Positions 24,780-52,200 of a DNA stretch of 64,000 nt are shown here, one piece after another. The notes under the pieces are model-generated. The model was not told the origin of the DNA and ran no database searches. It saw nothing but the letters and a program-made list of their open reading frames with translations. The stretch comes from Hormiphora californensis (taxonomy: Eukaryota > Animalia > Ctenophora). The position numbers and the translations under genes were made by a program. The stretch spans positions 2,480,001 through 2,544,000 of the forward strand of contig CM035357.1 of assembly GCA_020137815.1 (NCBI GenBank), given 5' to 3'. The stretch's first letter is position 1. Every line of letters starts with the position of its first letter.

Positions 24780-27700
24780 CTATTCCTTTCCCTTCTTTTT
24801 CTTTTTTGAGTCCTTCACAACGGTCACAATGTACTCAGAACCGGCAATCATCTGAAATGAAGAGAATTGTTACTTGGGGTCAGCACACACCAAAGTTAAA
24901 ATTAAAATTTTGATTTTAACGCCGCACACACCAGCGGCCGTTAAAATTTCTCTCCCCCATTCTAAAAGTAACGATCTCGCGTGCCATGATATTTCACATT
25001 AAATGCACAATGTGCATTGCACATTCTGCAGGGTGTCCATTGCACCTTCTATTCCAACCTTTGATCTTCTTCATTTTCATCCAATCAATACTTCCCAGTT
25101 CCCACAATCCAAGAGAAAAACTATACAACACCTTGTGGAAAACTCTTGCATTTCAAGCTGCATTTCCTTCCAATCAATGTCACACCTTAGCTCAATTCCA
25201 TCCCATGTTCACACACACAGACACACACACAGACACACACCCACACACACACACACACACACGAGCAAACCTGTGGAACGCCAGCAAAGACGAGTTGTTC
25301 GTTGACAATGTTCGTCCATCGTTTGCCGGACACGGGGTTAGTTGGGGCGGGGTGAAGCAGAGGGTAGACATGGGGACCAACCTCCTGACTACAGAACAGT
25401 TTACCAACCTGAGATTATAATAAGACATTTTAAGAACTGGGATGGAATTGGTAATGAAATTACCCCTCTGTTATTATTGCTCACGTATGCAGCAATAAAA
25501 GGGGTGACTTCGTAACCAAGGATGGGAGGGGGATATTGGGGTAGATGAAGTTGATAAATGATAATATTCAATAAATATTGAGTTAAGTAAGTGGTTGTAT
25601 GAAGCGGACAGGTAACAATTTATATGCTGCATCTTTATCATAGGCAGTAAAGAGGAAGCAGTCGATAAAGATCTTGATTTATAATTGAGATAAAGATCTC
25701 ATCCACAGAAGAAGAATCACCACATTTGAGGACTTTCTGGAGACGTTAAAAAACGACAGTAGCAAAAATATGAATTCGACTATGATGAGATTTCCCTGCA
25801 CTAAAAAATTCTTCGGTGTACCCTTAAATATTATATAGTTAAAAGTATTAAGAAGCTACCAGAATCCAGACAAATAACTATCCAATATGAATTTATTTAT
25901 TTCAATTCATATTGGATAGTTATTTGTCTGGACTCTGGGCTCTGGACTATAACTACTGCAGTCGGACCCCGATTTAACGGCACCCTGGGGGAAGGGTTTT
26001 TTCCCGTTAAATCGGGGTTTCCGCTAGATCGGGGTCAAATACTGTTAACTTCCTATATCGGGGGAAGATTATCCTGCCGTCGGGGTGCCGTTAAATCGGG
26101 GTCCGATAAATTGGTCTTTTGAGAGCGGGAAAAAGACAAAAATGCTCGGAGAGCTATTCTCTCCTAAAGTCGGATTTTTTCAAGATGTCACCCCCAAATG
26201 CACACAATTTTGACACACACACTTTAACATGTGATGTGACACGCAAACGAAACGAGCGCACGAGAAGGGGGTGACAATTTCAAAAACCCGACTTTACCTA
26301 CAACAATCTTGTCCAATTCTGAATCGGTTCACTCTCACTATATAGTCGGTTTTTTAAAGCTTTCAAACTTCTTAAATGCCCGTAACTCCGGTTCCTGATA
26401 AGATAGAGACTTGAAATTTGAGGTTACAAATATTATGACAGGTTCTTCCGAACCTCCAAACTTTAAGTCTTTATCTTACCTGGAACCGGAGATTTTACTA
26501 ATTTTGTTATTTCAAACGACACTCATTTAAAATCCGACTATAAATGCCATTGCTCAACGGTATACGACTGAAAGCGTTTAAAGACGCTAAATAGCTGTTG
26601 AATGGTTTGAAGGGGACTTTAAATACCTGCTGAAACGCAAATCCCCCGATAGCCACCACGATCGCTGGCCGAAGAATCTCGACGATATCAATTATGTGGA
26701 GATCGCAGTGGGTGATTACTTGGTTCCGTAGCTCGTGTGGCAAGCACGCTGGTACCACCTGAGAGGGAGAGAGGAAGAGAGAGAGAGAGAGAGAGAGATC
26801 ATGCGTGGCACGTGTGGTTTTCTAGAAGGTAAGTTATAGGAATGCAAATGATTTACTAGTTACGAAGTAAATCCAAACTAGAGAATCAGATGACATACCT
26901 GCATACCAAATGTTAGCAGATACAAAATATACGCGACCTACCTCTTTTCCCCGCTCATCTACATACAAGGCAGGGCAGTATGTGGTAACGTAGCATTTTC
27001 TCGCGAATTCCTTCATGCTGTATCTGGTCTCAAAGAACCTCCAAAACCGTTCTCCTTCCGGGTCCGCCCTAAGAGTTTCCCATCCCGTGACAGGTAGTTT
27101 CTCGTGGGAGACTTTGGGGGAACTAAAAATATTAGATTCAGGACTTTATAAGGTAAAATAATTAGAGATCATAAATAATGGTATTGTTTTTTCATTTTGT
27201 CTTCTCCAAATATTCACCTGATTTCAAGAGGTGGGACGTTGAGATATTCCTTCACATGTTTAGTATTTCCGAAGGGAACACCATTCTGGGCCATGCCGTA
27301 GGGTGTAGCGCTCATCCCCACAAACAATATGGGCTTCTCGGCATTGCCGTACTTGCACACGTAGGCACAGTGCGGCTCACATGCATACACCAGGGGATTA
27401 TACATCCTGGGGAGCAGCCCGGTTAACTGGAAATTAGAATCGGACCTCGATTCACCGGGCCTCTACCCTAGTAAACACGACGGTAAGTTGCATTTTATCC
27501 GCTCGGTAAGTGTCGGTATACCGAAGCTTACCGAGCGGTAAATGCAACTTACCGACACGCGGCGCTACTTACCGACGGTTTACCGAGCCGGTAAATGCAA
27601 CTTTTTGTCACACGCAAATCTGAGATTTAATGTTTTGGTCCAAAAGTTAAAACTCGTCACAAACTTGTTTATATAACTTGTTTATATAACTTGCTTATAT

Positions 27701-28170
27701 CAATTCGCTACCGAAAAAATATACCTTATTTCAACTCTTCCAACTTTTTGGACCAAAACAATAAATCTCAGATTTGCGAGTGACAAAAAGTTGCATTTAC
27801 CGGCTCGGTAAACCGTCGGTAAGTAGCGCCGCGCGTCGGTAAGTTGCATTTACCGCTCGGTAAGCTTCGGTATACCGACACTTACCGAGCGGATAAATGC
27901 AACTTACCGACACGTCGTGTTAATTACTAGGGTATTTACCGGAACCCCTATTTACCGGGAGGATTAACTTCCCTCAAATATTTTGGCAAATTTCACTGAC
28001 AATTTCAGAATTTAGAATTTTCTAATAAACTTATACTGCTGTTACTGGCAGTATATTGTTTTCGAAACTTACGTTAGTTTCCCTTTATCATGTCGTTCCA
28101 GGTTGGCTATGAGCCTCGCTTCGGAAGCAAATATCTGATGGGCCACATGCGTATCGTCTAATCCAAGCAT
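24780..28170 (-). CDS. SMUG1: SMUG1-family uracil-DNA glycosylase-like protein, 269 aa; exons 28170-28073, 27406-27218, 27122-26942, 26758-26627, 25408-25271, 24851-24780
   Basis: The spliced frame (810 nt) gives YNPLVYACEPH..ILFVGMSATPYGMAQNGVPFG..GERFWRFF..CYVTTYCP..VVAIGGFA..LLHPAPTNP..W, collinear with SMUG1 (YNPVEYAWEPH, GMNPGPFGMAQTGVPFG, GARFWGFF, HNLCP, LLHPSPRNP); C-terminal KKKKK. Confidence 0.9.
25448..25519. mobile_element. 72-bp TIR mini-element
   Basis: TTGGTAATGAAATTACCCCT...GGGGTGACTTCGTAACCAA; imperfect flanking duplication GGATGG(A/G)A. Confidence 0.75.
27466..27932. mobile_element. 467-bp near-perfect foldback element, TA TSD
   Basis: TA|CCCTAGTAA...TTACTAGGG|TA; arms of ~200 bp are reverse complements. 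Confidence 0.9.
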
Positions 28171-29996
28171 TGCAGGTGCCAGCTAATTAATGAAATACAA
28201 TCATTTAAACAAACCATTCTCAAGTATACATTATTGGAGCACGGCGCACGCTATTATACGAACTCACACACATTCAAAATCCTGCTCCCAAGTCCCAACT
28301 GCCGACGCCTTCCTTTTCTCGATATATGATTTTGATCGCACGAAAAAGATTTGATTCCTGATGTGCTGATCTTAACCATTCAAGTCAAAACATCCAATCC
28401 ATTGACGATTGCCCATTTATACATAAAATTTTCCAATTTCCAATTCCTAGCCCTGGGAAATTCGGCCAGCGTTAAAATCTGGGTGTTTTGGGAGTGCTGA
28501 CAAACGTTTTTTTTTTAGGGTTAGGGCTAAAGTAGGGTTAGGGTTGGGGTTTGGGTCGGGTTATCATCATCATCATCACAAAATACTTAATATTCCGCTT
28601 TATAGCTTTTACTTGTCATTATTATTACAAGAACCGGAGAGAGATCGATTAGACATGTATGAGGTCAGTTGCCCGAAATAGGTCCATGATGACCAGATAG
28701 TCGAAGAGCGAGAGAGACAAGACCAGATAGTCGGAGAGCGAGAGAGACAAGTCGTTACTCAAACTAAGATAAGATGAATAAAAGCATATTGTTTACAATT
28801 AAAATCAGCTGAGCTATCAAGCATCCTAATGTTATAAAGCATTGAATAAGTGGCTAGTACAATGGTCTAACGTGAGTTTCGTTGCACAAATTAGAACAAT
28901 GGTTATGTTATGCTACAATAATTGTAGCATAACATAACCCTAATAGTCGTTCTAATTTGTAGTACAATTGTTTCATTACGGCCCTTTATACCCTAATCAC
29001 TGGAGACAATGAAAGATATGCCTGACATTTTACTTGAGACGTGTCTATAATGCACTTGTAACTCCTCCTTCCAACCCTGTTTTGAGAATGAAACAGAGAA
29101 TGAACAGAGAATGAAACAGAGAATGAACAGAAAATGAGAGAGAGAATGAGAGAGAGAATGAGAGAGAGAATGAACAGAAAATGAGAGAGAGAATGAGAGA
29201 GAGAATGAACACAAAGAGGGAGACGGTGCTTTTGAAACATTTCAACACTGTTATACTTAAAAGCAATGAATTTTACTAAAACCCGTTTGAGGAATTCCGC
29301 CGCCTTTCCCCTTTTGTTAATCTTTGTAACAGCCGAAAGAAGTGACATTTGCATTGTAACAGATCATAAGGAATTTATGTGTCACTGATTATACTTACTG
29401 TCCCAAAGTTTCTCCATTGGGTGCGCCTCAAGTAAGGGCTTTTTTATAACCCACCCGGCTTCGCCGGGTGGTTCTTTTCGCCCCTTTCAACGTCAATAAC
29501 ACGGTTGCCATGGCAACTGAATTGGTAACTATGGGGACTGGCATGTCAAAAGTCATTTGAAAATATTAACAAACTTCCACTGGAAGTTCCAAAAGTGTGA
29601 ATGACAGCTTTACAGCTTTGGGCCCATGAAGTGTTTTATGAAGGAGCAGTCTGTCGCTTAGATACCGCTGAACGAACGACCACTTCGACGCGACATCTCC
29701 AAATTATAATAGAGATTATTAAATCTGTTTACAATAATTTGACACTGTCAATATTGCCCTCCTATTTGCGAGGAAAATGGAACTCTCTAGGTCTCTTTCA
29801 CACTTTCTCAGCTGTCAGATCATACAAAAAAATATAAAATGTCGATTAAAATACTGATTAGATAATGATTAAAATATATTGTAAATTGATTAAATAAGTT
29901 AGTTAAAAATTCACTCCGTGGAGTGCGATTCGTACACAGTGTGTACGTCTCGGGCTGGTCAGTTATACATTTACAATTAATTAGAATATAAACCCA

Positions 29997-32900
29997 TTAC
30001 ACAAGCAGTTGATCCCCAAATAAAGATTGTTCTATTACAGCTCTTACTAGCTTTCTAAAGTTCGATTTTACCTGCTTGTCTTTGGAGAAAATTAGTGGAA
30101 GATGGAAGTTCATTTCATAAGAAGATATCACCCTTAGTTCCTCACGGGGCCCTTCCACATCTTTTATCGCAGAACATTCAAACAACTTGTGGAATGTTGA
30201 ATCTGGGAGTTGGCCACATTCAAGACAATTGGGAACTGTAAGTGATCGCTCGTATCTCAGGTAACTGAAGCTGAAGTCTTGAAAACGTAAGGATCTGCCA
30301 TGTACAAAGTCTAAGACCTGAGATGAGTTCTGTCGGGACATGTTTCTTGGAATTATGGGGAAATCCAAAGTGGCCTCTGAGTTGATAAGGTTGGCGAGTT
30401 CTTCTTGAGAGTGAATAGGAAGTATGCTGAAAGGGTCATCTCGAGTCAAATGGTTAATCGATGATTTGAGTGACCGGTCCCATAAACTACATGTGTACTG
30501 TCTCATTTCCTCTTTTGAGTACAGGAAAGTGTCTGGCTCTAAACTTCCCAAGTTAATAGTTCTGATTGAATCTCTGTTAGAATCCTGGATCTGGACACCG
30601 TCTAGTTGAGTCGACTTCCAAACCAAATATCTTTTGGTAGCAGCAATCTGCCAGAAGAACACATGATTTTGTTCCGCTTCAATTTGTAGTAGTTTAGCTG
30701 ATATATTATCTTTAGCTGCAAGGCCTTTTAGGACAAATTTGGTTACCACTGTTTCCACAAGAACGTCAATAGGAGGCACGCATGCTAGGAGTTCTGACAG
30801 AGGTTTGGCTATGTGAACTTGTCCCCCTGTTATCTTCAGCCGTGCTCGGGAAAGAAGATCTCCGAAGAAGTCCGTTCGCTGTCTTAACCAAACTGGTGCT
30901 GCATAAAGGATCTTTGTCAAGATTACTGTTCTGAATAGTAGCGAAAGCCCCGAACTGTTAATCCCTGTCAGTCGACCAGTCATTGAGGTTAATGTGTTCC
31001 AGTTAAACCAGCATCTTTTCAGTACATCAGCAGCATGAGTCATGAAATTTAGGTTACTATCAATGTAAACCCCAAGGACTTTACTATTCTTGGCAAAAGT
31101 GACAACTTTATTTCCAATCTTCAGTTGCTGAGGTGATGCACTATCATCTGATGAACCCCTTGGTCTGATGATGACAATCTCTGTTTTATTTCTATCACAG
31201 TTCACCGCTAGTCTCCACTTCCGACACCAGTTGTGAATGTAGTCCAAAACTATTGCCATAGTTCTCTCGCATTGAGTCTGGTCTCCAAAAACCAACACAG
31301 ATCCGTCGTCGGCGAACTTGAATGCTTCAGTCCTACATCTCACCTCCTCCGGCAGATTTTTGGTGCAGAGTAAGTCAGAGATGTAGAGAATGAATAGGAT
31401 TGGAGAGAGGACTGCCCCCTGGGGAAGGCCTACTCTTCCACACCTACGGAGTGGGCCAAGAACTCCATTGATCTTCAAACGAACACTTCTTTGTGAAAGC
31501 ATGTTGTCGATAAGGTTCAACAGCATTCCATTGATTCCAAGTTTATGGAGCTTCACAATCAAACATTCATGGGGAACTGAGTCAAAAGCTTTTTGGAAAT
31601 CTATACACAACAGAAAGGCTGTCAGCTTTCTTCTGCGTGTTTCATGAACGGTCGATAGCAGCTTGAAGAGATAGCGAGTGGTGTTTCGTGCCGGTAGGAA
31701 GCCCTCTTGTTCCTCATCTGGTATTGATTCCATGGCGCAAAGATCTTTAATTCTTTTGTCCATAACCCTTTCAAGCATCTTTCCGATGTACGATGATATT
31801 GTGATGGGTCGGAAGGAACCTGGTTTTACATAGGACGACTTTCCAGGTTTCTGGATGAATGTAACGTAGGAAGAGTTCCACAGCCATCGACCCAGCTTTA
31901 GGCATCTCGAAAACATATCGGCTAAGTACTGCACAGTTCTGTGGCGAAGGTGTTTCAGCATGGTTGGGTGGATACCATCTCCGTCCCAGGCTTTACCACT
32001 CGCTTTCATAGAGCTGATGGCTGCTGATACTTCGTCGGCGGCTACTGGGCGATTGAGTTGATCCTCCGGGTCGTGATGATCGTCATCCTCTATCTCGTTC
32101 TTCAAACGAGCATAATCCTCAGTTATTCCGTCGAGGTGAACATCGTCAAAATCCTCACCTTGTAGGTGTTTACCAGTAAAGTAGGCATCAAAGAGGATGA
32201 GATCTTTTTCAGAGTCAAGGTGCAGAAGATCTCCGTTTTGGTTTTCTAAACATCCAATAGTATTCTCCTCTTTGGCAAGGAACATTCTGCGATATTGCTC
32301 CCAGAATTCACTGCATTCTTGGACATTGAGACCGTTTAGTCGCTGGTGAATCCACTCGTTTTTCTTCTTAATCAGCGCCTCCTTGAAAATATCTTTGGCT
32401 TGCTCCACTGCTTCTTTGTTGATATTAGTTCTTCTATAGCGCAGCCTTTTCTGAGCATCTCTGAGTTTTACAGACAACTCTGACAATTCAGGAGTCCAAA
32501 ATGGCCGGGAATGTTTGCAAATGGTCTTTGTTGGGATGTGGCTCTCGTTGGAAGATTTTAAACAGTCTAAAAAGTTGTGAAGCATACTGTCAGGAGATTC
32601 AGTAACAGATGGAGGATGTTCACAAAGTACACTCTCAACTTCAAGGGACCAGAGCTTCCAGTCAGTTCTGGCGAGATCAGGTACCTCTCTTTTTGAGGCT
32701 CTTGAGTTCTGGAAATTCATTTCTGTAAAAACTGGGGCGTGACCACGCGATGGGAACCCTGTAAAAAGGGTGTAGGCCGCCTCTTCGTCAACCCAAGGGT
32801 GCTGCTGGATGCCAGCATTCCCGAACATAAGTCCTATGTCAATCACACTTCCCCCGTTGTTACAAAGAAATGTATTTCTACCGGGCGAAAGGGCTACACA

Positions 32901-33389
32901 CTTTTCCGTGTCACAAAATTCCAGCAGCTGTTTTCCCTCCTTATTAGTTTGCCTGTCACCTAGGGGAATGCATCGTGCATTTAGATCTCCAAGAACAAGT
33001 AAAGAACGGATGCCAGAGGATTTACAGAGCGCCCAAGCATTTCTGATAACATCGAGAAGTGGAGATAAACTGTTGCTGGGGGAACGGTAGACAGATCCTA
33101 CCATCAATGGCTTGTTGTCGATCTGGATGGTTGCGAAGACAGCACCAAATAGGGCGGATTCAAGTTTGTGGATGCGCTGTGGCTTTAAATCAGGGTTTAT
33201 GGAGAGTGATACTCCCCGGTCGGCAGAAACTCCAAAGGTCTTCATATTAGTGAATGTGTTACCAGCAGGTGAGGTTCCCACCTCCTGCAAGGCGAGTATG
33301 CTAATACGTCTTGTATAACATAAACGATCTACTGCAATTGCAGATTGGGGACTAAGACCGCTCACGTTTAATTGACACAAACTAACCAT
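29997..33389 (-). CDS. LINE ORF2: APE endonuclease + reverse transcriptase + C-terminal CCHC
   Basis: LNVSGL, LALQE, VYRSP, GDLNA, IDI (APE); FRPITI, QEGF, IDFQKAFDSV, GLPQGAVLSP, FADD, LGV (RT); CLEC..H...C. Confidence 0.97.
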   Translation of the reverse strand: MVSLCQLNVSGLSPQSAIAVDRLCYTRRISILALQEVGTSPAGNTFTNMKTFGVSADRGVSLSINPDLKPQRIHKLESALFGAVFATIQIDNKPLMVGSVYRSPSNSLSPLLDVIRNAWALCKSSGIRSLLVLGDLNARCIPLGDRQTNKEGKQLLEFCDTEKCVALSPGRNTFLCNNGGSVIDIGLMFGNAGIQQHPWVDEEAAYTLFTGFPSRGHAPVFTEMNFQNSRASKREVPDLARTDWKLWSLEVESVLCEHPPSVTESPDSMLHNFLDCLKSSNESHIPTKTICKHSRPFWTPELSELSVKLRDAQKRLRYRRTNINKEAVEQAKDIFKEALIKKKNEWIHQRLNGLNVQECSEFWEQYRRMFLAKEENTIGCLENQNGDLLHLDSEKDLILFDAYFTGKHLQGEDFDDVHLDGITEDYARLKNEIEDDDHHDPEDQLNRPVAADEVSAAISSMKASGKAWDGDGIHPTMLKHLRHRTVQYLADMFSRCLKLGRWLWNSSYVTFIQKPGKSSYVKPGSFRPITISSYIGKMLERVMDKRIKDLCAMESIPDEEQEGFLPARNTTRYLFKLLSTVHETRRRKLTAFLLCIDFQKAFDSVPHECLIVKLHKLGINGMLLNLIDNMLSQRSVRLKINGVLGPLRRCGRVGLPQGAVLSPILFILYISDLLCTKNLPEEVRCRTEAFKFADDGSVLVFGDQTQCERTMAIVLDYIHNWCRKWRLAVNCDRNKTEIVIIRPRGSSDDSASPQQLKIGNKVVTFAKNSKVLGVYIDSNLNFMTHAADVLKRCWFNWNTLTSMTGRLTGINSSGLSLLFRTVILTKILYAAPVWLRQRTDFFGDLLSRARLKITGGQVHIAKPLSELLACVPPIDVLVETVVTKFVLKGLAAKDNISAKLLQIEAEQNHVFFWQIAATKRYLVWKSTQLDGVQIQDSNRDSIRTINLGSLEPDTFLYSKEEMRQYTCSLWDRSLKSSINHLTRDDPFSILPIHSQEELANLINSEATLDFPIIPRNMSRQNSSQVLDFVHGRSLRFQDFSFSYLRYERSLTVPNCLECGQLPDSTFHKLFECSAIKDVEGPREELRVISSYEMNFHLPLIFSKDKQVKSNFRKLVRAVIEQSLFGDQLLV

Positions 33390-34773
33390 AGTGCATTTTT
33401 GAGAGAATAGGGCAGTTCATTGATGTGGCGGAATGGTTGCGGTCCCTACTGTTAACACAGTTTGAGCACTTTAGACGAGATGAATCCCCAGTTGATACAA
33501 CAGGACAATCCACAGGTTTGTGATCCTCAGAGCAATGAGGACAACAACGTTTCTGTCTACACCAACAGGCTGGGTGACCAAACTGGAAGCAGTTATAGCA
33601 CTGGTTGCTTTTCGGAGATCTCGTATCAACGTATTGCCTTATCCGACATGATTGGTACTCTAATCGGAGTCCAGAACTTATAGCAGCATCTCGTCCTTGT
33701 TCAGTTTCAAAGATTATCATTACTGAAGATGTAGGTGTGCGACTTCTACCGAGCATTCTCCGTACATGGGTGGGCTTGACACCCAGTTTGACCTCCAGAC
33801 TTTCTGAGATTTCAGCTTCCAAAACTGAAGGGTCCACATTCTCAGCTACGCACTTGTGACCTCCCTCAGACAGAATGGATGCACGTGTTGATTTATCATC
33901 GCTAGCAAAGAAGTTAGGCTTCCAATCACGAACGACAGTTTCTGCATCTTCACTTGAAGTCATCTCCAATAGAAGATAACCCCGCCTTGTCGGCTTGACC
34001 TGGGAGATTACAATGTTAGGGTAGTATTTGTGAAATTCTTTCGAAGTTAAATATCCCTGCTTAATGAACTTTTCATAATCTGTGACTCCTCTTACTATAA
34101 CTGTTCTCTTAGCATCACACAAATTAGATCGGTTTGCACCATGAGAAGAGTTCTTAAAACTGTTATTTGTGCCCTTAAAAACTTCTCTCTGAACATTTGC
34201 AACTCTCTGTGAATCACCACACTCATCAACACTTGGTTTGGCCCTGACAATAGCTTGTGAACCGAGAGCTGTTGCGTAGCTCTGGTTAATGGATTTACTC
34301 ATCTCCTCCAAGAAAGACGATACTTTAGTGTCTATCGCATGTTCAAAATTGTCTAAGCGGTCTTCTAGTACCCTCTGAGTAAGTACAGACGGTTCGTTGC
34401 TCATACTCTTAATAGTACAGTTCAGTTCATCGTCCCTACAGCTGGGACAAAACCATGCTAAACCCTCGTATTCGTTTATCAGCAAACAGGTTTTATCATC
34501 ATCTAGAACGGCAGAACAGTCACTATTTCGGCATGTTACAGTATACTCTCCATTGATGGTTGACGGGGCATTAGATGCCTGCTCATGTAGATCGTCCAAA
34601 AGTTCAAGCGTGAGACAGTACGCACTCCTTAATAACTGTAGTATATCAGTACGGCTGGGCTTGGAAGAAGGGGGATTTGGTGATCCCTTGGTGACATAAG
34701 TCATTAACCCTTTCTGTTCAACTGCGGCTTTCAACGCAAGAAATCCATCGTGGGTGTCTCGAACAGTTTTCAT
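33382..34773 (-). CDS. LINE ORF1 (gag-like, three zinc knuckles, N-terminal Cys cluster)
   Basis: CYNCFQFGHPACWC, CPHCSEDHKPVDC, CSNC..H..C; WFCPSC; stop codon overlaps the ORF2 ATG by 8 nt. Confidence 0.93.
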   Translation of the reverse strand: MKTVRDTHDGFLALKAAVEQKGLMTYVTKGSPNPPSSKPSRTDILQLLRSAYCLTLELLDDLHEQASNAPSTINGEYTVTCRNSDCSAVLDDDKTCLLINEYEGLAWFCPSCRDDELNCTIKSMSNEPSVLTQRVLEDRLDNFEHAIDTKVSSFLEEMSKSINQSYATALGSQAIVRAKPSVDECGDSQRVANVQREVFKGTNNSFKNSSHGANRSNLCDAKRTVIVRGVTDYEKFIKQGYLTSKEFHKYYPNIVISQVKPTRRGYLLLEMTSSEDAETVVRDWKPNFFASDDKSTRASILSEGGHKCVAENVDPSVLEAEISESLEVKLGVKPTHVRRMLGRSRTPTSSVMIIFETEQGRDAAISSGLRLEYQSCRIRQYVDTRSPKSNQCYNCFQFGHPACWCRQKRCCPHCSEDHKPVDCPVVSTGDSSRLKCSNCVNSRDRNHSATSMNCPILSKMHYG

Positions 34774-35565
34774 ATCGGGGTTATCCTCCCCGTTCTTCTT
34801 TTCGTTTTAGTCATGGTTTCTGCCCTTAGGGGCGGCTAGTGGGTCGCCATCCTAAAACTCAAATTAATTTGTTTTTTTTTTTACTTGTCAGAAAAGTTCT
34901 TACATATGCTAGAAAACACACAGACTAAACTAACGGCTTTCAAAAGCGGTGGAGCCTACTTCGAATCGCCCGAGATCACACACAAATTGTGTATGGGTCC
35001 AAGCCATTCGAAGGAGGCTCCAATACCTACAACTCAAGAAACTACTATAGCCGTTAGGCCTTGACATTCCCTACCATATAAACTTTGAATCAGCCAAAAC
35101 GGTTGAGTGGTTTGGCGGTTAGAGCCATTTTAGTGAATCAACTTTTTTGGCAGTGCGCACCTGTAAACAGGCCTCCAAACACCCAGATCGTAAAAAACGG
35201 CGCCCGGGAAATTCCGAATTCGCGCCAAATTTCTGAACTGGAAAATTTCAAGATTTTGATATTTCTGCAAGACCGCGCGCCGCAATTTATGGAAAAAACG
35301 CGCGGCGCGTTAAATATTTGCGCGGCTCATTTTTTTTACTTTGAGGATCTGGCTGTTTCAATTTACAAAGTTGAGACTGTGCTTCGATAAAAGCCTGATG
35401 TTTTCAGGACACGGTAGCAAATTAATGTTAGATCATGACAGTGACATTACATTCACATTTACAAGGCTAAAAAACTAAAATAGGAGCTACCACTATAATA
35501 TAAACTCAAAGTCAAACGATTGCAATTAACTGTTTAACGCCACGGGTAGTGGGTACGATCGTGAT

Positions 35566-37301
35566 GGGGGGGGGGGGGGGGGCCCGCGTATTAAAATGTC
35601 CTTTAATGTCCCTCGATTTTTGGGACATTAAATTGTCCGTTATTATTTAGGACATTAAAAGACATTAAAGGACATTATAAGACATTAAAAGACATTAAAT
35701 TATAACTTCCAAAAACCATTCCAAAATGTGTTACCAAACATGTTTACCACCAATGTACTACTAAAGGTCCCATCTTTCGATTCCAATGAATGTCATAAAT
35801 GTTCACTGGTGATTAGGCTTACTTTTGTGTGGGGCGTGGGTGCGGTACCTATTTTACATACATGCATATTTCTAGCCTAGACGATATCTCAAAATCATCT
35901 TATGAAACGAGTAGAAAAGACACCGAAGGCTTTAGAGTGAGAGAGAACAGCCCCGATTTTGATGAAACTTGGTCAGAATAGTGTTTGGTGTCAAAAAAAT
36001 TTAGTGCTCAACTCCTAAATTGGGGGGGGTGCAGCCCCAAAAAAATTCAAACTTTTTCCGAAACCCAGGGTATGGTTGGTTTTTTTTGGTCGTTTTTGGT
36101 CGTTTTTGGTTGAAATTTCTTTGATTTTTTTTGGTCGTTTTTGATTTTTTTTGGTCGTTTTTGATTTTTTTTTATCGTTTTTGATTTTTTTGATCGTTTT
36201 TGATTTTTTTTGAATTTTTTTGATCGTTTTTGAATTTTTTTTGATCGTTTTTGATTTTTTTTGATTGTTTAATGTTGAACAAAAAGTTCAAAAAAATCAA
36301 AAACGATCAAATAAAATCAAAAACGATCAAAAAAATTCAAAAAAATCAAAAACGATCAAAAAAAATCAAAAAAGATCAAAAAAAATCAAAAAAGATCAAA
36401 AAAAATCAAAAAAGATCAAAAAAAATCAAAAAAGATCAAAAAAAAATCAAAAAAAATCAAAAACGACCAAAAAAAATCAACACTTTTGAAAATCCAGGGT
36501 ATGGTTGGTTTTTTTTTGGGCTGCACCCCCCCCCTAAATTTACGATTTTTAGGTTTTTTAGGTTTTTTGGTTTTTATGGGTTTCAGGAACGTCCTAGAAC
36601 AAAATGAATAGAACCATCCTTCTCAGCGTGAAATTCTGTATCGATTTTAGTGGCTATAAACCTTTCTATGACGTAGAGTTATCCCAAACGGGTACATGTT
36701 ATAGGGGCGGGTACATGTTTTAGGCTAACGGGCAAACCTCTTGTCAGAACACCATGTTATAGGTACTCAATCGACGTGTATTGGTGAGGAAATCATTTTA
36801 GTGAAAACCATTTTGATCTGCGATGTCTGTGTAACGAATAAAACCTAAAAAACCTTACCACATGAAGCATACCCGTTTGGTTTTTTGGGATAACTACGTC
36901 ATAGAAAGGTTTATAGCCACTATGATCGATGCAGAATTTCACGCCGAGAAAGATGATTCTATTTATTTTGTTCTAGGACGTTCCTGAAACCTTGACATTT
37001 AGTCCAAAACTTCAAAATTTCCGGGGTTCGCTTAGAGGTACAGGGCCACCCTAAAATGAGGCTTAATCACCCCCAACATCTATGGTATTGGTTGGAATCG
37101 ATAGAGGGGACATTAGAAGTAAATATTAAGTGGTTGAAAACACCATTTTAGTTTAATAATAGCTGAAAATTCATGTTTTAATTGAATGTCCTTTAATGTC
37201 TTTTAATGTCTTTTAATGTCCTTTAATGTCCCAGGGACATTAAAGTCAGACGCGTTTATTTAGGACATGGATATTAAATTCACGCGGCCCCCCCCCCCCC
37301 C
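35566..37301. mobile_element. 1.74-kb non-autonomous TIR element with poly-G/poly-C termini, 8-bp TSD
   Basis: ATCGTGAT|G-run CCCGCG ... CGCGG C-run|ATCGTGAT; empty site at 40599-40606; subterminal GACATTAAA repeats; internal inverted repeats. Confidence 0.88.
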
Positions 37302-37586: not shown

Positions 37587-38785
37587 TCGCTGGCCGAAGA
37601 ATCTCGACGATATCAATTATGTGGAGATCGCAGTGGGTGATTACTTGGTTCCGTAGCTCGTGTGGCAAGCACGCTGGTACCACCTGAGAGGGAGAGAGGA
37701 AGAGAGAGAGAGAGAGAGAGATCATGCGTGGCACGTGTGGTTTTCTAGAAGGTAAGTTATAGGAATGCAAATGATTTACTAGTTACGAAGTAAATCCAAA
37801 CTAGAGAATCAGATGACATACCTGCATACCAAATGTTAGCAGATACAAAATATACGCGACCTACCTCTTTTCCCCGCTCATCTACATACAAGGCAGGGCA
37901 ATATGTGGTAACGTAGCATTTTCTCGCGAATTCCTTCATGCTGTATCTGGTCTCAAAGAACCTCCAAAACCGTTCTCCTTCCGGGTCCGCCCTAAGAGTT
38001 TCCCATCCCGTGACAGGTAGTTTCTCGTGGGAGACTTTGGGGGAACTAAAAATATTAGATTCAGGACTTTATAAGGTAAAATAATTAGAGATCATAAATA
38101 ATGGTATTGTTTTTTCATTTTGTCTTCTCCAAATATTCACCTGATTTCAAGAGGTGGGACGTTGAGATATTCCTTCACATGTTTAGTATTTCCGAAGGGA
38201 ACACCATTCTGGGCCATGCCGTAGGGTGTAGCGCTCATCCCCACAAACAATATGGGCTTCTCGGCATTGCCGTACTTGCACACGTAGGCACAGTGCGGCT
38301 CACATGCATACACCAGGGGATTATACATCCTGGGGATCAGCCCGGTTAACTGGAAATTAGAATCGGACCTCGATTTACCGGGCCTCTACCCTAGTAAACA
38401 CTCTTTAACTTCCCTCAAATATTTTGGCAAATTTCACTGACAATTTCAGAATTTAGAATTTTCTAATAAACTTATACAGTCGGACCCCGATTTAGGGACA
38501 CCCTCGGGGGAAAGGCTCTTGTCCACTAAATCGGGGTGTCCACTAAATCGGGGTCAAATTAGGTTAGTTTCCTATAACGGGGGAAAAAAATCCTGTCCCT
38601 AAATCGGGGTGCCACTAAATCGGGGGCCCCTAAATCGGGGTCCGACTGTACTGCTGTTACTGGCAGTATATTGTTTTCGAAACTTACGTTAGTTTCCCTT
38701 TATCATGTCGTTCCAGGTTGGCTATGAGCCTCGCTTCGGAAGCAAATATCTGATGGGCCACATGAGTATCGTCTAATCCAAGCAT
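37587..38785 (-). pseudogene. Truncated second copy of the SMUG1-like gene (exons 38785-38688, 38329-38141, 38045-37865, part of exon 4); may be an uncollapsed allele
   Basis: Nearly identical to 26662-28170; similarity stops inside exon 4, so the HPAP-motif exon is missing. Confidence 0.8.
38477..38648. mobile_element. 172-bp Tc1/mariner-type MITE, TA TSD
   Basis: TA|CAGTCGGACCCCGATTTAGGG...TAAATCGGGGTCCGACTG|TA; absent at the paralogous site 28030-28040. Confidence 0.92.
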
Positions 38786-39044
38786 TGCAGGTGCCAGCTA
38801 ATTAATGAAATACAATCATTTAAACAAACCATTCTCAAGTATACATTATTGGAGCACGCTATTATACGAACTCACACACATTCAAAATCCTGCTCCCAAG
38901 TCCCAACTGCCGACGCTCTCGTTTTCTCGATATATTATTTTGGTCGCACGAAAACGATTTGATTCCTGATGTGCTGATCTTAACCATTCAAGTCAAAACA
39001 TCCAATCCATTGCCCATTTATACATAAAATTTTCCGATTTCCAA

Positions 39045-40231
39045 ACCAGACCGCCCGTAGGGGCAGGCAGAAGTTATGACGGAGAAACTCAAGACCTCTG
39101 ATGCAGATGCTGATCCACTGGAATGTGTTGATCTCTCGGTGGTGGAACTACTTCGTTATGCAATAAGAGACGTTTTGTTAATCAGGAATGGAACCAAACC
39201 GAGTCACCATCTCGTGGATGAAGAGCTGCGAATGTTATTCTTGGATTCCCGTCGATCACTGCCAGTAGACTACGCTCCAAGAAATTATAACGGAGATCAA
39301 TTCATGGCTTTCACCAAGAACCTCTGCCGTCATATTCTTCTGATAGCGAGGGAAGCGGGACAATGTATGAAATATAAAGATGAAGCTGTCCGTATGAAAG
39401 AACGTCGGGAACTAGAGGAGTGTAATCGGAAACTCAAGGAGGTACAGAAAGAGCTTGGCTTATTCAAGGAAGAAGTCGATAAACACCGAGTAGCAAGGAT
39501 TGAATTACAAGAGAAGCTGATTGAAGCACAAAAAAGTTTGATTGAAGTACAAGATCGGAAACTCAATTCGGTGTCGGAGTCTGTTCAGAAGCAACTGCAG
39601 GGCTACTCAAAAGTCCTTGTACAAAACTGCTCAGCGGCTATTGCACCATCCCGCCTACAAGCAGCATGGAAGAAAGCGACAGTGCCTCTTCCTAAAAGTA
39701 GTACAACGGAAGAAGCAACTCCTGATCGAAAGCTGAATTTGGTTTTGTTTGGGCTACCAGAAACTACTGCAAGAACTACTGAGCATGAAGTTCGAGATAT
39801 TTTTACAGAGCTGAATGAAAAACCAGTCGTGTCTTCCACAAAGCGTGTTGGCGAAAAGACTGAAAACCGTCCAAGACCAGTAATCGTAACGCTTGAAAGG
39901 AGGGAAACCTTGTTGCAGCTTCTCAGGAAAGCAAAGCAGCTCCGGGATTCAGAGAAATTTTCCTCGGCGTTTCTTTCCCCCGACCTAACACCGGAGGAAC
40001 AGCGAGAACGGAAAACTCTCGTTGATACAGTGAAAGGACTGAGGCGAGACAATCCGAATGGACGATACTGGGTTAGCAGGGGGGTAATTAAATGTGGCTG
40101 ATTTCTAATCAGTGACATGTGCACTGAAGAGACTTCTAATGGGACTTATTAATGACTATCCGTTTCGCCCACAAAAAGGGGCAGTATATGTAATGTATAC
40201 ATTTTAGAGTTAATAATAATAATAATAATAA
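39045..40231 (+). mobile_element. ORF1-only non-LTR retroelement (1.19 kb)
   Basis: 12-bp TSD TCCGATTTCCAA (39033-39044, 40232-40243); (TAA)7 tail; empty site at ~28432-28443. Confidence 0.92.
39076..40101 (+). CDS. LINE ORF1-type protein (coiled coil + RRM + CTD, L1/CR1 ORF1 type), 341 aa
   Basis: Long E/K/Q-rich coiled coil followed by NLVLFGLPE, RVG, RPRPVIV, LLRKAKQLR, FLSPDLTPEEQRER motifs. Confidence 0.88.
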   Translation: MTEKLKTSDADADPLECVDLSVVELLRYAIRDVLLIRNGTKPSHHLVDEELRMLFLDSRRSLPVDYAPRNYNGDQFMAFTKNLCRHILLIAREAGQCMKYKDEAVRMKERRELEECNRKLKEVQKELGLFKEEVDKHRVARIELQEKLIEAQKSLIEVQDRKLNSVSESVQKQLQGYSKVLVQNCSAAIAPSRLQAAWKKATVPLPKSSTTEEATPDRKLNLVLFGLPETTARTTEHEVRDIFTELNEKPVVSSTKRVGEKTENRPRPVIVTLERRETLLQLLRKAKQLRDSEKFSSAFLSPDLTPEEQRERKTLVDTVKGLRRDNPNGRYWVSRGVIKCG

Positions 40232-40830
40232 TCCGATTTCCAATTCCCAGACCTGGGAAATTCCGAATTCGCGCCGGATTTCTGCACTGGAAAATTTCAA
40301 GATTTTGATATTTCTGCAAGACCGCAATTTATGGAAAAAACGCGCGGCGCGTTAAATATTTGCGCGGCTCATTTTTTTACATTGAGGATCTGGCTGTTTC
40401 AATTTACAAAGTTGAGACTGTGCTTCGATAAAAGCCTGATGTTTTCAGGACACGGTAGCAAATTAATGTTAGATCATGACAGTGACATTACATTCACATT
40501 TACAAGGCTAAAAAACTAAAATAGGAGCTACCACTATAATATAAACTCAAAGTCAAACGATTGCAATTAACTGTTTAACGCCACGGGTAGTGGGTACGAT
40601 CGTGATATAGATAAAAACCTTACAGCTATACTCTCACAATAACATATAAAATGTAGTTCATGCAAAATAACTATAATCTTAGTCTCAAATTCATAACTGT
40701 GATACTGAAACACTGTCAGTAAGCTAAATTTGAAAACTTGAAAATAAAACTACCAGTAGTATAATAACAGTCACAATTTGTGTAGCAGACTTTCAGTATA
40801 AAGTCAATTTCGAGAGTGTTTCTGAGGAAT

Positions 40831-43800
40831 TTAAATACACGCATCAGCAGATGTGATTTCATTTTCAATTTCATGTGACAGGGGGGTGCAGCTGTGGTCC
40901 CCATTATTGGTGATCTTTGCCCCGTCAATGATCGATGATCGGCCCCGGAGGTTCCTCAATTCAGCATAAGAATGGGGCAGGTTAACCTGCCGTGTCAGAC
41001 AAGTGTTTAAAAAGGCCAGACCGACTGACAGGAAAAGAAGGCCCCCTCCAACAACCAGACGGAGATTTTCCTTGGTTTCCCCGTCCTGACAATACGGCTT
41101 TCTCTCGTTTGTCTTGTCCAGGCAGTACGATTCAGTTAGGATGTGGAACAGCATCCCGAGCATGTAGGAAGCGTTTACACCTGAAGTAGGGGTTGTCATG
41201 TTACATTATAGGGGGACTGTGACGAGGGGGGTTATGTTATGGGACTGAGACTTGTTACAAACATGGGCCATGGCCATGGGGGCGTGGGGCAGCAAAAAAC
41301 GTTTTTATGCTTTCAGTTTCAATTACTGTCCCACATCTTATTATTTTTCTTCTGCAGAGGAGCTAATTTTGAACGACAACTATATTTGTGGCAGTCTGCC
41401 ATTGCAACACTATGGCTGTACTAAATACGGTCTTCCATTCAATTAGAACACATCAAAAGAGATATATTTCACTTTCAGTTCACACAAACTAGTGCTATAA
41501 TTTCGGCCAAATTACTTCCGGATTATCTCATAAAATAACTCAAGAACGGAAGACTAATTCCATCTTATCTGTCAGTGTCAAGCAGCTAGGAAATTTCGCC
41601 TAGCTAGACTATGTTTCGGGCGCCCCGAAATGTTAAGGAGGGTTAGAACATAACAAAGGAAATTAAACTGTTTGGTGAAACGTGAATCAGAAAGGATTAT
41701 GCTCACAATCAACACACACTTCACACTGAGGCGCCTAATAAGCGTGTTCGGTGTGACATCTACTACTTTCGGGCAGGTCATCCTGTCATCCAATCACCAA
41801 CAAACCCTGTCAAAGCATTGGCACAAACCTGTAATGTAGAGGCCACGGTTTAGTGTTGGGACCTGTTTGACTGTTGTAAAGGTCAGTGCAATGGAGGTAC
41901 TACACAGGAGTAGGGCACCCGTGGTAAACACTCTGAAGTGGGAGGGGGAGGGGTAGTTATCAATTAGCCAATTATAATATGATGAACTCATGCGAGAACT
42001 AAGAAAAAAAGTTACTAAATCCCAAGACTGACCTGATAAGGACCCAGTGTAGAATACTGATGCTCTCTTTTCGGAGCGTGTTCGTCTCGGCATTGCGCGT
42101 CGCGGGTGATGGAGCTAGCCCGGGTGAGCGAGCTAACAATAGTGAACTTCCATGCGATATAGTACATCGCGCGCATGTAATTGCACTATTGTTAGCTTGT
42201 TCGCCCGGGTTTGGTACAGTCTGCGGCGCGCAGTGTTGAGACGAACACGTTCCGAAAATGCAGGATAAGACTCACCTGGTAAGGGTCCATGGTTGGTTAT
42301 CCAGGAAGTCCACAGAGCTGGTAGTACTGCTAACCATCAGCAGCACCCCCGCTACCAAAACGCAAAACACGTTCACCACATAGAATAACATTGGCAGGAA
42401 TGTGAGACAGACAGCGAGGAAGCTCCCCACCAGAATAGTAGTTTGGATGACCATTGTTCTTTCAAATACGGTGCTGGAATGGTTCTGATCAGTAATTAGG
42501 ACCAGGAGTAACCGTTGGACGAAGCCCAGGGTGAGTAGGAACACCGCGTTAACGGCATACAGACGGTTCGTCTGGGGTTTAATAAGACAATCCTTCGCCC
42601 TCGGTCTCCTCACCGCACCATGGACCAACTTAACCCCACAATCGGCCGGCAGTGACTTTGTCTTCCCCTTGGCAACGAGATATCTCACTGACTCGGGGAC
42701 GATAAACAACCCCGCGGAGATGACACCCCCAGCAACAGCTAGAATGAGAGCCGCAAACCGCCATTGTTGTGTCATGTAGGTCACCCCAACCGTTACCATG
42801 GTTCCCAGAGTTGAGCATGTGAGGTAGAGTGCTGCCACAGCGCTACAGCACGGTAGGGTCGACATTTCCACTGCCCAAATAAGGACCGCCATACAGGCAG
42901 CACTGTTGAAGATCCCCTTAATAAACTCTTGGTAGGTGTACATGATCATATTACTGGATATGTAGTAGCTCATGGCGGTTAGGAAGGAGAAGAAGGTACA
43001 AATTAGAGTGACATTCTTCCGTCCCAGGGTATCGATGAAAATACCACCGATCAGAGAGCCGACAACAAGGCCTAGGTAATTGACCATGGTAGGTTCTACA
43101 GTTCGTTGTAGGGGGCAGTAGGAGTTGTATTCTAGGATGGGGGAGGAGGTGAATGTGTAGTTCCATTCGAAGTCAGAGTCAAGGTCCATCGAGCATAACC
43201 CACTTCGTCTGTCTCGGTTTCTCTGCAAATAAAGGAGGGGTTTCTAGGAGTTTGAAATTCAAATGAAACATGATTTGTCTTTCTCGGGGCGACCAGACTA
43301 CCTTACTCTCGTTTTTTAAGAAACGCTTTAGTAAGAAACTTTTTTATAAGAAACTTTTAAAATGTAAATTACACAATTCAGGGACGCCACAACAAAATAG
43401 AACACCCCTAACTTGTTTAGTTTCTTGATAAAGGAGAAATTCTTTTTGTTTTTGGATTGCTAACACCTGTAGTTTCCTAGAAAAAAAGTTTCTTATTTAA
43501 AAGTTTCTTGAAATATGCGAGCTTAATTAACGAGAGTAAGGTATTTAGTTGTTGACTAGTTAGTTGTTATAAATTCAGATTATACTCTTTAAATGGTATT
43601 ATTTAAAACAATTTGTTTTCATTTGACAAATTACAACTACACATTGAATTCTTTATAGTGTGCTCACAAAAGGGAAGCACTATTAATAATAGTATTATAA
43701 TAGTGCATGCACTATCCTTTCGAGGAATGCTCTTAAGAGGGGGAAAAGGATACATTGGTATTTTCTACTGCCCTATAATGAACTTCTTATACCAACAGCG

Positions 43801-44465
43801 TTCCCTATGGTGGGCGAACTCTAGTGCTAACGGACTCTATTATACCTCAAAGTGTTTACAGAGGGCGGTTATTCCGGTATGTTCCTCCACTGCACACCTC
43901 CATTTTGTCACCGATTCAGGAGTAAAGACAAGGTGGGTACTGGAGATAAATGAGATACCGGATATGGTCGACATCAGGACGAAAACCTGAAATGAGATCT
44001 TGGGTTATTTACAGAGTGGTACAGAAATAAATACAGCTGAACACCTGTAACGTAGGTTTTATAATTAGGGTTGGGATTGAAAATAGGGTGTCCCAGAAAC
44101 AGAGTTAGGGTTGAAAATAGGGTGTCCCAGAAACAGAGTTAGGGTTGAAAATAGGATGTCCTAGAAACAGAGTTACTGTTAGGGTTGAAAATAGGATGTC
44201 CCAGAAAGAGAGTTAGGGTTGAAATTAGGATGTCCCAGAAACAGGTTTAGGAATAGCCGATATAAGAGGAGCTGGGGTCTTCAAAAGAGCTTGGCAAGTA
44301 ATACAGCTGAATATAACCTACCAGGAATGATCTCCATGCCAGAATTCCTGGCCATTTTGAGCCAGTGTTGCTCTCCATCCACTCTCGCCACTGTGTGGGT
44401 CTCTGGTCACATTGTACGGGCCGGTATCGGATGTTGTCAAGCCATCGAGATACCCATCGAGACAT
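40831..44465 (-). CDS. SLC22-like / MFS organic ion transporter; exons 44465-44322, 43986-43846, 43222-42276, 41932-~41800, ~41180-40831 (last junction uncertain)
   Basis: TM1 followed by a Cys-containing loop (WRC..C..EWNY..SPILEYNSYC); MFS motif GIFIDTLGRK; WAVEM; QWR; VPESVRYL. Confidence 0.85.
42068..42258 (+). repeat. 190-bp intronic inverted repeat (long hairpin)
   Basis: Arms 42068-42143 and 42184-42258 are complementary if G-U pairs are allowed. Confidence 0.85.
43301..43541. mobile_element. TA-flanked MITE
   Basis: TA|CCTTACTCTCGTT ... AACGAGAGTAAGG|TA. Confidence 0.7.
44066..44250. repeat. ~34-bp intronic minisatellite
   Basis: Unit AGGGTTGAAAATAGG(G/A)TGTCCCAGAAACAGAGTT, about 5 copies. 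Confidence 0.9.
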
Positions 44466-49299: not shown

Positions 49300-52200
49300 T
49301 CAGTCAACACTTGTTTCTCGTAATCTCGCTGTCTGCCACATATTTTCAGGCGGAATGATACGACCACTCTTGAAGAAACCACGCTAAAATAAAATCGGAG
49401 GGTTGCTAGGGAATTGAGAGAGGGTTGCTAGGGAATTGAGGGAGCGTTGCATATAAGGGAATTGAGGGAGGGTTGCTAAGGAGTTGAGGGAGGGATCAGT
49501 TGATTGACAGGAGGCATTGCTATAGAAAATCACTAAAGGCAAGCCCAAATAATTGGACGAACTACATGATAGAAAGATATATGTGACCCACACGTTTTAT
49601 ACGAGAGGGCGGCTAGTTGTTACTCGATTTAGTTCAGGACTGATCCGAATATATTATTTGATGACGTGTCATCATGTTATATTTGGGGCATGTAAGACGT
49701 CATGGAACCCCCTGATAGAGCTAAACTAGCCTGCACATTAGTGGCCATAATCAACTCAACTGCTGCATGCTGCAGAGGGCTACTACTGCAGAGGAGGACT
49801 GAGGATTACGTATGATCTAATTCACATACATTTTCTAGTTCTAAATTCCACTCATCACTCGTTATTATATTATTACTAGTAGAATAGAATAGAAAACAGA
49901 AACAGAAATTGAAGCCGAAATAACCGACTGTAGCCTTCTGTGTCCAAATAAGAAGAGACCCAAAAAACAAAGATCGTACATGTGACCACCGGGCAAGCAT
50001 CGTACACACATCGCGAAACCCAGGGATTTGCGAGCATGCACGTAACCGGCCCCCTGTAGGGTGGTCATATGTACGGTCAAGACCCACACACACGCCCTCA
50101 AACGGAAGTTCATAGTTTTATATTGAGTGATTAATCTGATACCCATGAATCTCTCAGAAGTTTGCAGTTCTTGAGGAATCGGTTAACGTGGCTGCAGTGG
50201 TGTTTAGAAAATACTGTGGAGAAGTCCTTTTCTGCGATGGCGGATCTTAGTGATTCAGGGAGGGTGTCTCGGATGTGGGAGTATGCCGGACATGTAGTGA
50301 TGACGTGTTCCTCGTTTTCAAGTATTGTTTCAGGGAACGGGAGGTGGTCAAGTAGCCGTCGGTTCAGGTCATCACAGCAAAATCTACAGAATTTAGGCTG
50401 GTTAGATTGTGAGTATCTCGAGGTCTCGATTCTGAGATCGTGGGCACTGACTCGGATTTTGCTAACCTCCTTTCTGTCGGCTCTTTTTATGTTCAGATAA
50501 TCCTCGAAGCCGTAGCCTAATTTAACCGAATTGTAGAAGCGCATTTTTGACTGGTTCTGGCGATGTGATTCCCAGTGGGTAACCATCTGGTGTTCCATGG
50601 TTTGCCTTACAGGGTCCGTATCACTATGGAGTTTGTTCCAGAAGGTGTACCAGTCTAGCTGCAAGGTTTTCTGCTCCTTCGCTGCGAGTCCTAGGAGTGA
50701 TTCGTCCTCGCCACACTTAGACATGACCCTGGCGAAGTAATGGAGGCATTGGTTCAGAACAGTGATGGAAATTGGTGCTCTCCCAGTCTCACCATAGCAA
50801 GCGGTATTTGTGCTTTTTTTATGCACCCCAAGTACCCATTTGATGAATTTGAGTTGCACTTTTTCGAAAGGGTCCGCGGTTATCCGCTTCATGTATGTTT
50901 CACCGTTAGTTGACGTACAGTGGAGAACCTTTGCAGATTCTGAGTACGGAAGCCATATTGGACAACCGTATGTGATGATGGGGGTTATCAGAGCGTCGAA
51001 GAGCTTAAAGGCTGCCCAAGCGGAGAGGGCGTCACCGTTCACCGTTTTCCTCAGAAGAAATACTGCTTTACTCCCTTTGGTGGAGAGGTTAGTAATTGCC
51101 GCCTTCATACTTCCGCTGGCAGAGAATACAATTCCCAGATAGGTGTACTCTTTTACCGAATCAAGTGATTTGCCGAGTAGCTGGAAGCCATGGCTATCTT
51201 TCAGAACTCTGCCGGAGGGATTGAAGACTAGGATCTTAGTCTTTTCTGTATTTATACTGGCGAAGAACCCACCACATATACCCATATGATCTAGCTTCTT
51301 GAGTAAGGCGATCCTACAGACCGAGTCAAAGGCTTTGCGGTAGTCGACGAAGCAAGCAAAAACTCGCTGTTTCTTCTTCTTCAAGTATTTCTCCAGGATC
51401 GTTTTCAGTACCAGTGTATGATCATTTGTTTGTCCACCTTTCGCGAATCCCTGTTGGTTTGGGGTATCGGGACATACTTTAGCCCGGAACAAAGTAAGCC
51501 TGTTCAGGAGAATACTGCTATAAAGCTTTCCAATGCAGCTTCCCAGGGTTATCGCCCGGTAATTGTCAGGGTTAGCTGTTGATCCCTTTTTGTGAATTAC
51601 TGTTGTCAGGGACGTGTTCCACGGGTAGCACCCGATAGTGAGGCATCCGTTAAACAGTTTAAGTAACAACTGTTTAAGATCAAAAGATGAGGATCGTAGC
51701 ATTTCATTGGCTACTTGATCTAGGGATGGACTTTTCCCGTTCTTGAGGTCTTTGATAGTGTCAGATAGCTCATCCATGGAGATTGGATGAGAGAGCTCGT
51801 CGGCGATTGACTTTTCCGGGATGTACGGTGCTGTACTAGTATATTAATAGTAGTAAGTAATCAGTTGATTATGCACTAACAACTAGATAGTCAGGGCATA
51901 TGATGTCAATTTCATGGTGATTTTCGGCATAATTGTTATAAAGCTAATTCCACTTCTAGGAGGTCCTATTGGGTCCCTAGAACCACCAAAAAAAAATGTT
52001 CGCGATTTGGTGGATGAAGAAGCCATGTGGCTATAGCCATGTTAGGAAAGGAGTAGAGACAAAACCGAGGGCACTAAAGTGTTCAGCGTCCTCGAATTAG
52101 TGGGGGTAGGTGCTGGAATTAAGTCTCTATCTCATCTGGTTAATTAGATAATTGGATAATTAGGTCTGGGCATAGCCATTTTTGGCCATATGGCTATAGC

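Follow-up and report, generated by a model that had tools for sequence, protein, structure and literature searches.

A ctenophore LINE that begins with a spliced-leader remnant and was probably copied from trans-spliced RNA

LINEs copy only RNA, and the upkeep of their 5′ end is a general problem that is solved by internal promoters or by ribozymes. One LINE in a 64,000-nucleotide stretch of the ctenophore Hormiphora californensis (contig CM035357.1, positions 2,480,001 to 2,544,000, forward strand; here called the window) begins with the end of the host's spliced leader (SL), which raises the question of how its 5′ end is made. Renewal of the 5′ end by host trans-splicing would be a third solution. 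It is hinted at in flatworm surveys, without junction-level tests in the portions of those surveys available. The family is young and multi-copy, and both chromosome-scale genomes and full-length cDNA have been published for its host, so the idea is directly testable. Published work is cited by PMC number, in each case for the part of its text that was accessible.

The element is a 6.26-kb LINE with two ORFs and an APE-RT architecture. It extends from 34878 to 28619 on the minus strand and is flanked by a 12-bp target-site duplication (Table 1). These limits are drawn from the 12-mer at 34890-34879 and 28618-28607 together with the (TAA)3 tail, and they are confirmed by an empty site, a single duplication copy joined to 28606-28587, in all three organism-A (same-species) runs examined. 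The exact boundary between duplication and leader remnant is ambiguous because of an A-run there. As in autonomous APE-type LINEs, a duplication and a simple-repeat 3′ tail are present and LTRs are absent, and ORF2 has Pfam matches to PF14529/PF03372 at 6-202 and to PF00078 at 512-754. A search of ORF2 for RNase H or a restriction-like endonuclease gave no match. The 3′ region is either a long 3′ UTR or a 3′ transduction; a stable GC hairpin (z -3.35) lies within it at 29430-29480 on the minus strand.

Table 1. Features of the LINE and its insertion site, with window positions
Feature	Position	Strand	Remark
Host MITE-like element, right part	34891..35202		multicopy in public run contigs
Target-site duplication, 5′ copy, 12 bp	34879..34890	-	longest match between 5′ flank and region behind ORF2
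Four extra A at duplication/leader remnant boundary	34875..34878	-	presumed slippage, untemplated addition or assembly run-length
SL remnant, last 17 nt of ctenophore SL exon	34858..34874	-	ends in AG
Putative second acceptor TTTTAG, pyrimidine-rich AG	34852..34857	-	6 nt behind leader junction; judged from sequence
Upstream ORF, 4 codons	34836..34850	-	
GC-rich palindromic motif, 16 nt, candidate internal cis-element	34820..34835	-	14/16 with 5′ end of an unrelated element at 39051-39066
ORF1, PHD-like Cys cluster, C-terminal CCHC knuckles	33382..34814	-	frame broken near 34798 in window copy
ORF2, 1130 aa, APE endonuclease and reverse transcriptase, C-terminal Cys/His motif	29997..33389	-	8-nt overlap with ORF1
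3′ region, ~1.37 kb behind ORF2	28628..29996	-	without AATAAA/ATTAAA
(TAA)3 tail	28619..28627	-	
Target-site duplication, 3′ copy	28607..28618	-	directly after (TAA)3 tail
Host MITE-like element, left part	28464..28606		

An earlier note on this DNA, made from its letters alone, had called the target site a MITE, which is a fair description. This target element is 467 bp long, its terminal inverted repeats are imperfect, and it has a duplication of its own; the repeat in which it sits has a paralogue at 38649-40606 that is free of the MITE. An 8-nt match, seen by eye, between the MITE just upstream of the LINE and the 5′ half of the leader is target DNA, since it belongs to the empty site. The LINE body differs from public runs by about 0.5% (6 in 1122 nt in record 9 of run X4), and the family is therefore young. 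Contig depth is 260-330 over the LINE body and 45-75 over the long flank contigs (X2/X4), which hints at several copies, depth not being a copy number.

Alignment to the published SL agrees with the earlier note's central observation that the LINE begins with the end of a ctenophore leader. Positions 34874-34858 (minus strand) are identical, 17/17, to the end of the 44-nt Hormiphora californensis leader, and the remnant starts at the element boundary. This leader is found on 56% of full-length cDNA (Iso-Seq) reads of the species (PMC8527503). The remnant ends at the last base of the SL exon and, as the note had read from the letters, no GT intron start follows, which is the form of a retrocopy of SL-trans-spliced RNA. 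The 17-mer is AT-rich and might resemble a leader by chance in AT-rich DNA, but it occurs only once in the window, where 4e-5 to 1e-4 exact matches are expected under base composition and Markov models of orders 1-4, a figure computed before requiring a position at an element's 5′ end. With an expectation of that size or less, and with a leader match that extends to 27/28 in another species, coincidence is extremely improbable.

Leader sequence beside a non-LTR element recalls CRE/SLACS/CZAR and NeSL, which have a single ORF and a restriction-like endonuclease and insert into SL genes (PMC3636483, PMC4640811). If the ctenophore LINE were such an element, its leader piece would be target DNA. 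The two-ORF ctenophore element is neither inserted in an SL RNA gene nor built as a single ORF with a C-terminal restriction-like endonuclease; its ORF2 instead carries an N-terminal APE domain. Both the duplication and the empty site of the window copy consist of MITE sequence, no SL intron stands at the 3′ flank, and the flank of a second insertion in run X2 is not leader sequence, so that SL-gene targeting is contradicted for two copies. One contig from organism B ends while still within the leader, and for that copy insertion into an SL gene is possible. Taken as an account of the family, SL-gene targeting is highly improbable, and the earlier note was right to set the locus apart from CRE/SLACS and NeSL on account of its MITE target.

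Other copies were sought by comparing 33300-35020 with contigs of four sequencing runs, three from organism A and one from organism B (X8, a related species). These belong to 22 runs found, of which 6 contained half or more of the sequence words. The comparison covers the 24 of 66 loose ends, 12 of 17 indels and 32 of 126 pieces that were listed. No RNA run holding the LINE is among the 22 listed, and all junction evidence comes from DNA contigs.

The leader end recurs in these contigs. Record 4 of X2 covers 34379-34874 and then continues for 29 nt into another flank, which marks it as a second insertion, its remnant being close to the same 17 nt. A loose end in X4 keeps only the last 5 leader nucleotides, while one in X8 adds 13 further nucleotides that continue the published leader, giving at least 28 nt in total at 27/28 by hand comparison; the 5-nt and 28-nt ends are probably parts of full elements, judging by depth at 34852. 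Record 10 of X4, from a sister family (14 differences in 520 nt), and record 30 of X8 (56 differences in 660 nt, organism B being about 91% identical up to there) both reach 34862, inside the leader. Remnant lengths among the ends listed, a small sample, are therefore 5, 17, 17 and at least 28 nt with a constant 3′ junction, as in retrocopies of trans-spliced RNA. The earlier note had predicted such variable remnants ending at one junction, and had held that a longer, non-SL 5′ UTR in other copies would speak against its reading; none is present among the 24 loose ends listed.

Several further contigs were observed in these runs. The sister family, seen in X4 and X5, has 34343-34862 in common with the LINE at 97% and then differs downstream, and its contigs are several times deeper than those of the main family in X5. 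An X8 contig matches only at 34817 and upstream (the first ~40 nt), after which it diverges over at least 255 nt; by its sequence it seems to be a different element, non-autonomous or sister, with the same first 40 nt.

U6-L1 chimeras are products of template switching, and the leader here might likewise have been gained when the reverse transcriptase jumped to SL RNA or to an mRNA capped with the leader. LINE reverse transcriptases do jump between templates (PMC2881922), and leader-capped RNAs are abundant in this species, given their share of Iso-Seq reads. After such a jump, bases of the SL intron or of a foreign mRNA should separate the leader from the element, and the junctions should vary; in several lineages the observed junctions instead coincide exactly with the end of the exon and with AG acceptors. 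Template switching is accordingly a very unlikely source of the leader.

The reading preferred here, to which a probability of roughly 70% is assigned, is that RNA of this LINE has repeatedly been SL-trans-spliced and reverse-transcribed into the leader, recurrently in the family rather than once. Copying from leader-spliced RNA is likely because parts of the leader stand at the start of the LINE and of related copies. If trans-splicing is followed by target-primed reverse transcription, junctions should lie at the leader's last base and at AG acceptors, the 5′ extent should vary, and targets should be dispersed, which is the pattern seen. This part of the earlier note's proposal stands, with a real SL remnant and with leader pieces ending at the same junction in other copies; the promoter-free cycle that the note attached to it does not share that support.

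In the proposed mechanism, a precursor would start upstream of the junction, by host read-through or from an upstream-directed start, and carry an unpaired acceptor. The acceptor would be the terminal AG of the copied leader or the TTTTAG that follows 6 nt later, and the spliceosome would join a fresh capped leader to the LINE RNA. After ORF1 and ORF2 are made, target-primed reverse transcription would begin at the (TAA)n tail, and the cDNA would end within the leader, in this copy at the AAA run, where it could pair with the A-rich end of the target. Because the cDNA stops inside the leader, each copy would hold a variable remnant and a usable acceptor. The stop at the AAA run beside an A-ending target fits microhomology-guided 5′ joining, a general mechanism of 5′ attachment (PMC2881922).

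The earlier note had also claimed that each new copy carries its own acceptor. In an X5 contig of depth 192, precisely the 6 nt of the second acceptor (34852-34857) are missing, and the contig is therefore read as a leader joined at the second AG, as the note's model predicts; this form is seen in a single contig from one of four runs, and a 6-bp slip from one AG to the other would give the same sequence. If it is not a slip, at least two splicing events are implied, one for leader/TTTTAG and one for the shorter form. A GAG is generally a weak acceptor, and the leader/TTTTAG form is dominant in both species. Re-splicing in every cycle is hard to square with these data, unless the first AG wins. 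An outron that began at the remnant might be too short to splice, as nematode work suggests, so the RNA that is spliced probably starts further upstream.

The sequence between the leader and ORF1 bears on whether the element needs trans-splicing at all. The earlier note recorded an ATG right after the second AG and counted only about 105 nt before ORF1; that ATG opens just the four-codon upstream ORF. In the window copy, ORF1 is open from an ATG over 34773-33382 (463 aa). All four runs (4/4) have one base more near 34798, and the ORF1 homologues P0002 and P0003 extend N-terminally. Together these put the usual start of ORF1 at 34814, further upstream than in the note, with 43 nt between it and the leader junction. 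ORF1 of the window copy has either a frameshift near 34798 or an assembly slip there. For this reason the note's statement that both ORFs are intact is only nearly right.

A short 5′ UTR had further been taken to leave little room for an internal promoter. Such a length is still compatible with one, since about 47 nt contain the internal promoter of Penelope, which is similar to the promoters of I, jockey, F, G and Doc (PMC2377424). The 16-nt motif recurs at the leaderless start of an unrelated LINE derivative and is a candidate internal promoter element, which hints against a promoter-free cycle, although palindromes can converge. Its 14/16 match, a pair found by eye, was reached by 1 of 5000 shuffles and by 0 of ~4980 random window 31-mers. 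Folding of the 43-nt 5′ UTR is no better than that of shuffles (z -0.85), and the 105-nt 5′ end reached a z of -2.4 in one of five folds tried, a value given no weight here. An Rfam search of the window returned 0 matches.

The motif would suit a frozen relic, in which an ancestor acquired the leader on one or two occasions and the leader has since become ordinary 5′ UTR, with an internal promoter, no new trans-splicing, and remnants that only shrink. Drosophila-type internal LINE promoters fit under 50 nt (PMC2377424), the motif stands in an unrelated element with no leader before it, and the leader/TTTTAG form is kept in two species. The window and X2 copies, two organism-A insertions, also stop at the same leader position, which is compatible with a fixed start and counts against recurrent splicing. 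That stop, at position -17, is equally explained by A-run microhomology with the target, the remnants vary in length, and the second-acceptor junction would require further splicing or a lucky deletion. A frozen relic of this kind is judged unlikely, though it is the most probable of the alternatives.

Recurrent trans-splicing could also extend to a more radical cycle. The lineage may have no promoter of its own; the leader AG and its back-up acceptor would allow SL trans-splicing to cut copies out of passing host transcripts and re-cap them, after which they would be translated and retrotransposed. Such a cycle is a tentative suggestion and would more probably prove wrong than right. If it were true, the host trans-splicing machinery would define and renew the 5′ end of a LINE, and such copies might form part of the hundreds of unexplained ctenophore leader matches. 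Genomic leader matches number 718 in Hormiphora and 491 in Mnemiopsis (PMC8527503), and SL-ended LINEs are one possible source of them. Genomic leader matches are thus not all to be taken as SL RNA genes.

SL remnants beside LINEs have already been noted in flatworms, and the ctenophore case adds junction-level support in a new phylum. In 24 flatworm species, 597 loci have partial leaders beside LTR or LINE elements (PMC12582326), and six SL-bearing transposable elements are described in Schistosoma mansoni (PMC5832876). Like the ctenophore LINE, these loci place a partial leader at a retroelement without SL-RNA gene features, and they are read as integrated trans-spliced element RNA. They differ in that the leader lies within 500 bp of the element, chimeric assembly is possible in Schistosoma, and element boundaries, duplications and junction analysis are absent from the accessible text. 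The ctenophore LINE, by contrast, begins precisely with the leader, within a duplication that has been verified, and the leader recurs in sister families and two species and with a second-acceptor form, in another phylum with its own SL.

Dinoflagellate SL-relic retrogenes are likewise leader-tagged copies made by reverse transcription, and the copied leader can be trans-spliced again (PMC12014239). Their cargo is host mRNA and re-splicing inside the leader yields tandem relics, whereas the ctenophore cargo is an autonomous element in which a new splice at the AG that closes the leader would restore an identical end. In Cer1 of C. elegans, a subgenomic RNA is trans-spliced while the genomic RNA is unspliced (PMC3315495). 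The 5′ ribozymes of R2 and L1Tc offer a parallel, since there too processing rather than transcription start could set the RNA 5′ end (PMC2881922, PMC3185411); the agent is self-cleaving RNA in those elements and would be the host spliceosome in the ctenophore LINE.

By architecture the element resembles I-group-like LINEs (I, jockey, F, Doc and kin), with two ORFs, CCHC knuckles in ORF1, an APE-RT-Cys/His ORF2, a (TAA)n tail and a variable duplication. It differs from them in having no RNase H match and in having a leader, not a known promoter, as its 5′ end. A quick tree of 37 rows covering the RT region, drawn from 42 proteins including ORF2, places ORF2 in a fully supported 12-member branch among unnamed proteins only, with identities down to 31%, and the nearest relatives outside that branch carry RNase H.

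In the openly accessible literature searched, no ctenophore LINE that ends in a leader was found described, and the accessible parts of PMC7986045, PMC4558846 and PMC2566580 add nothing on the subject. Among candidate relatives of ORF1, 0 of 7 viral and 0 of 63 genome-contig sequences were confirmed; among those of ORF2 in viral sequences, 0 of 5; and the leader pattern was found in 0 viral sequences. Pattern matches in 2 metagenome, 28 genome and 2 viral sequences were set aside as chance, 1/32 loci having a weak 41-nt match around the pattern and 0/32 a translated match.

The remainder of the window holds other genes and repeats. A three-exon MFS transporter gene at 42275-44465 (minus strand) ends at 42275, which rules out that the LINE lies inside it. 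Its product matches a protein of Pleurobrachia bachei at 95-98% identity, which points to a pleurobrachiid ctenophore as the likely host and supports the Hormiphora leader as the relevant one for comparison. The unrelated element that has the 16-nt motif is an ORF1-only LINE derivative at 39045-40231 (plus strand). Its 341-aa ORF (39076-40101) is unrelated to ORF1 of the LINE and has no Pfam match. The derivative has a (TAA)n tail and a 12-bp duplication (39033, 40232), and it lies, without a leader remnant, in a paralogue of the LINE's host repeat. A 5′-truncated LINE of another family, internally deleted and with an AT-rich tail, occupies ~49880-51840 (minus strand) and retains an RT fragment ORF at 51777-50131. 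A near-perfect palindromic element of 470 bp at 27464-27934, 84% self-complementary, is absent from the paralogous region at 38401-38405. Foldback-like elements at 36040-37000 include inverted arrays of a 10-bp unit (36094-36456) and 98-bp inverted arms (36579-36991).
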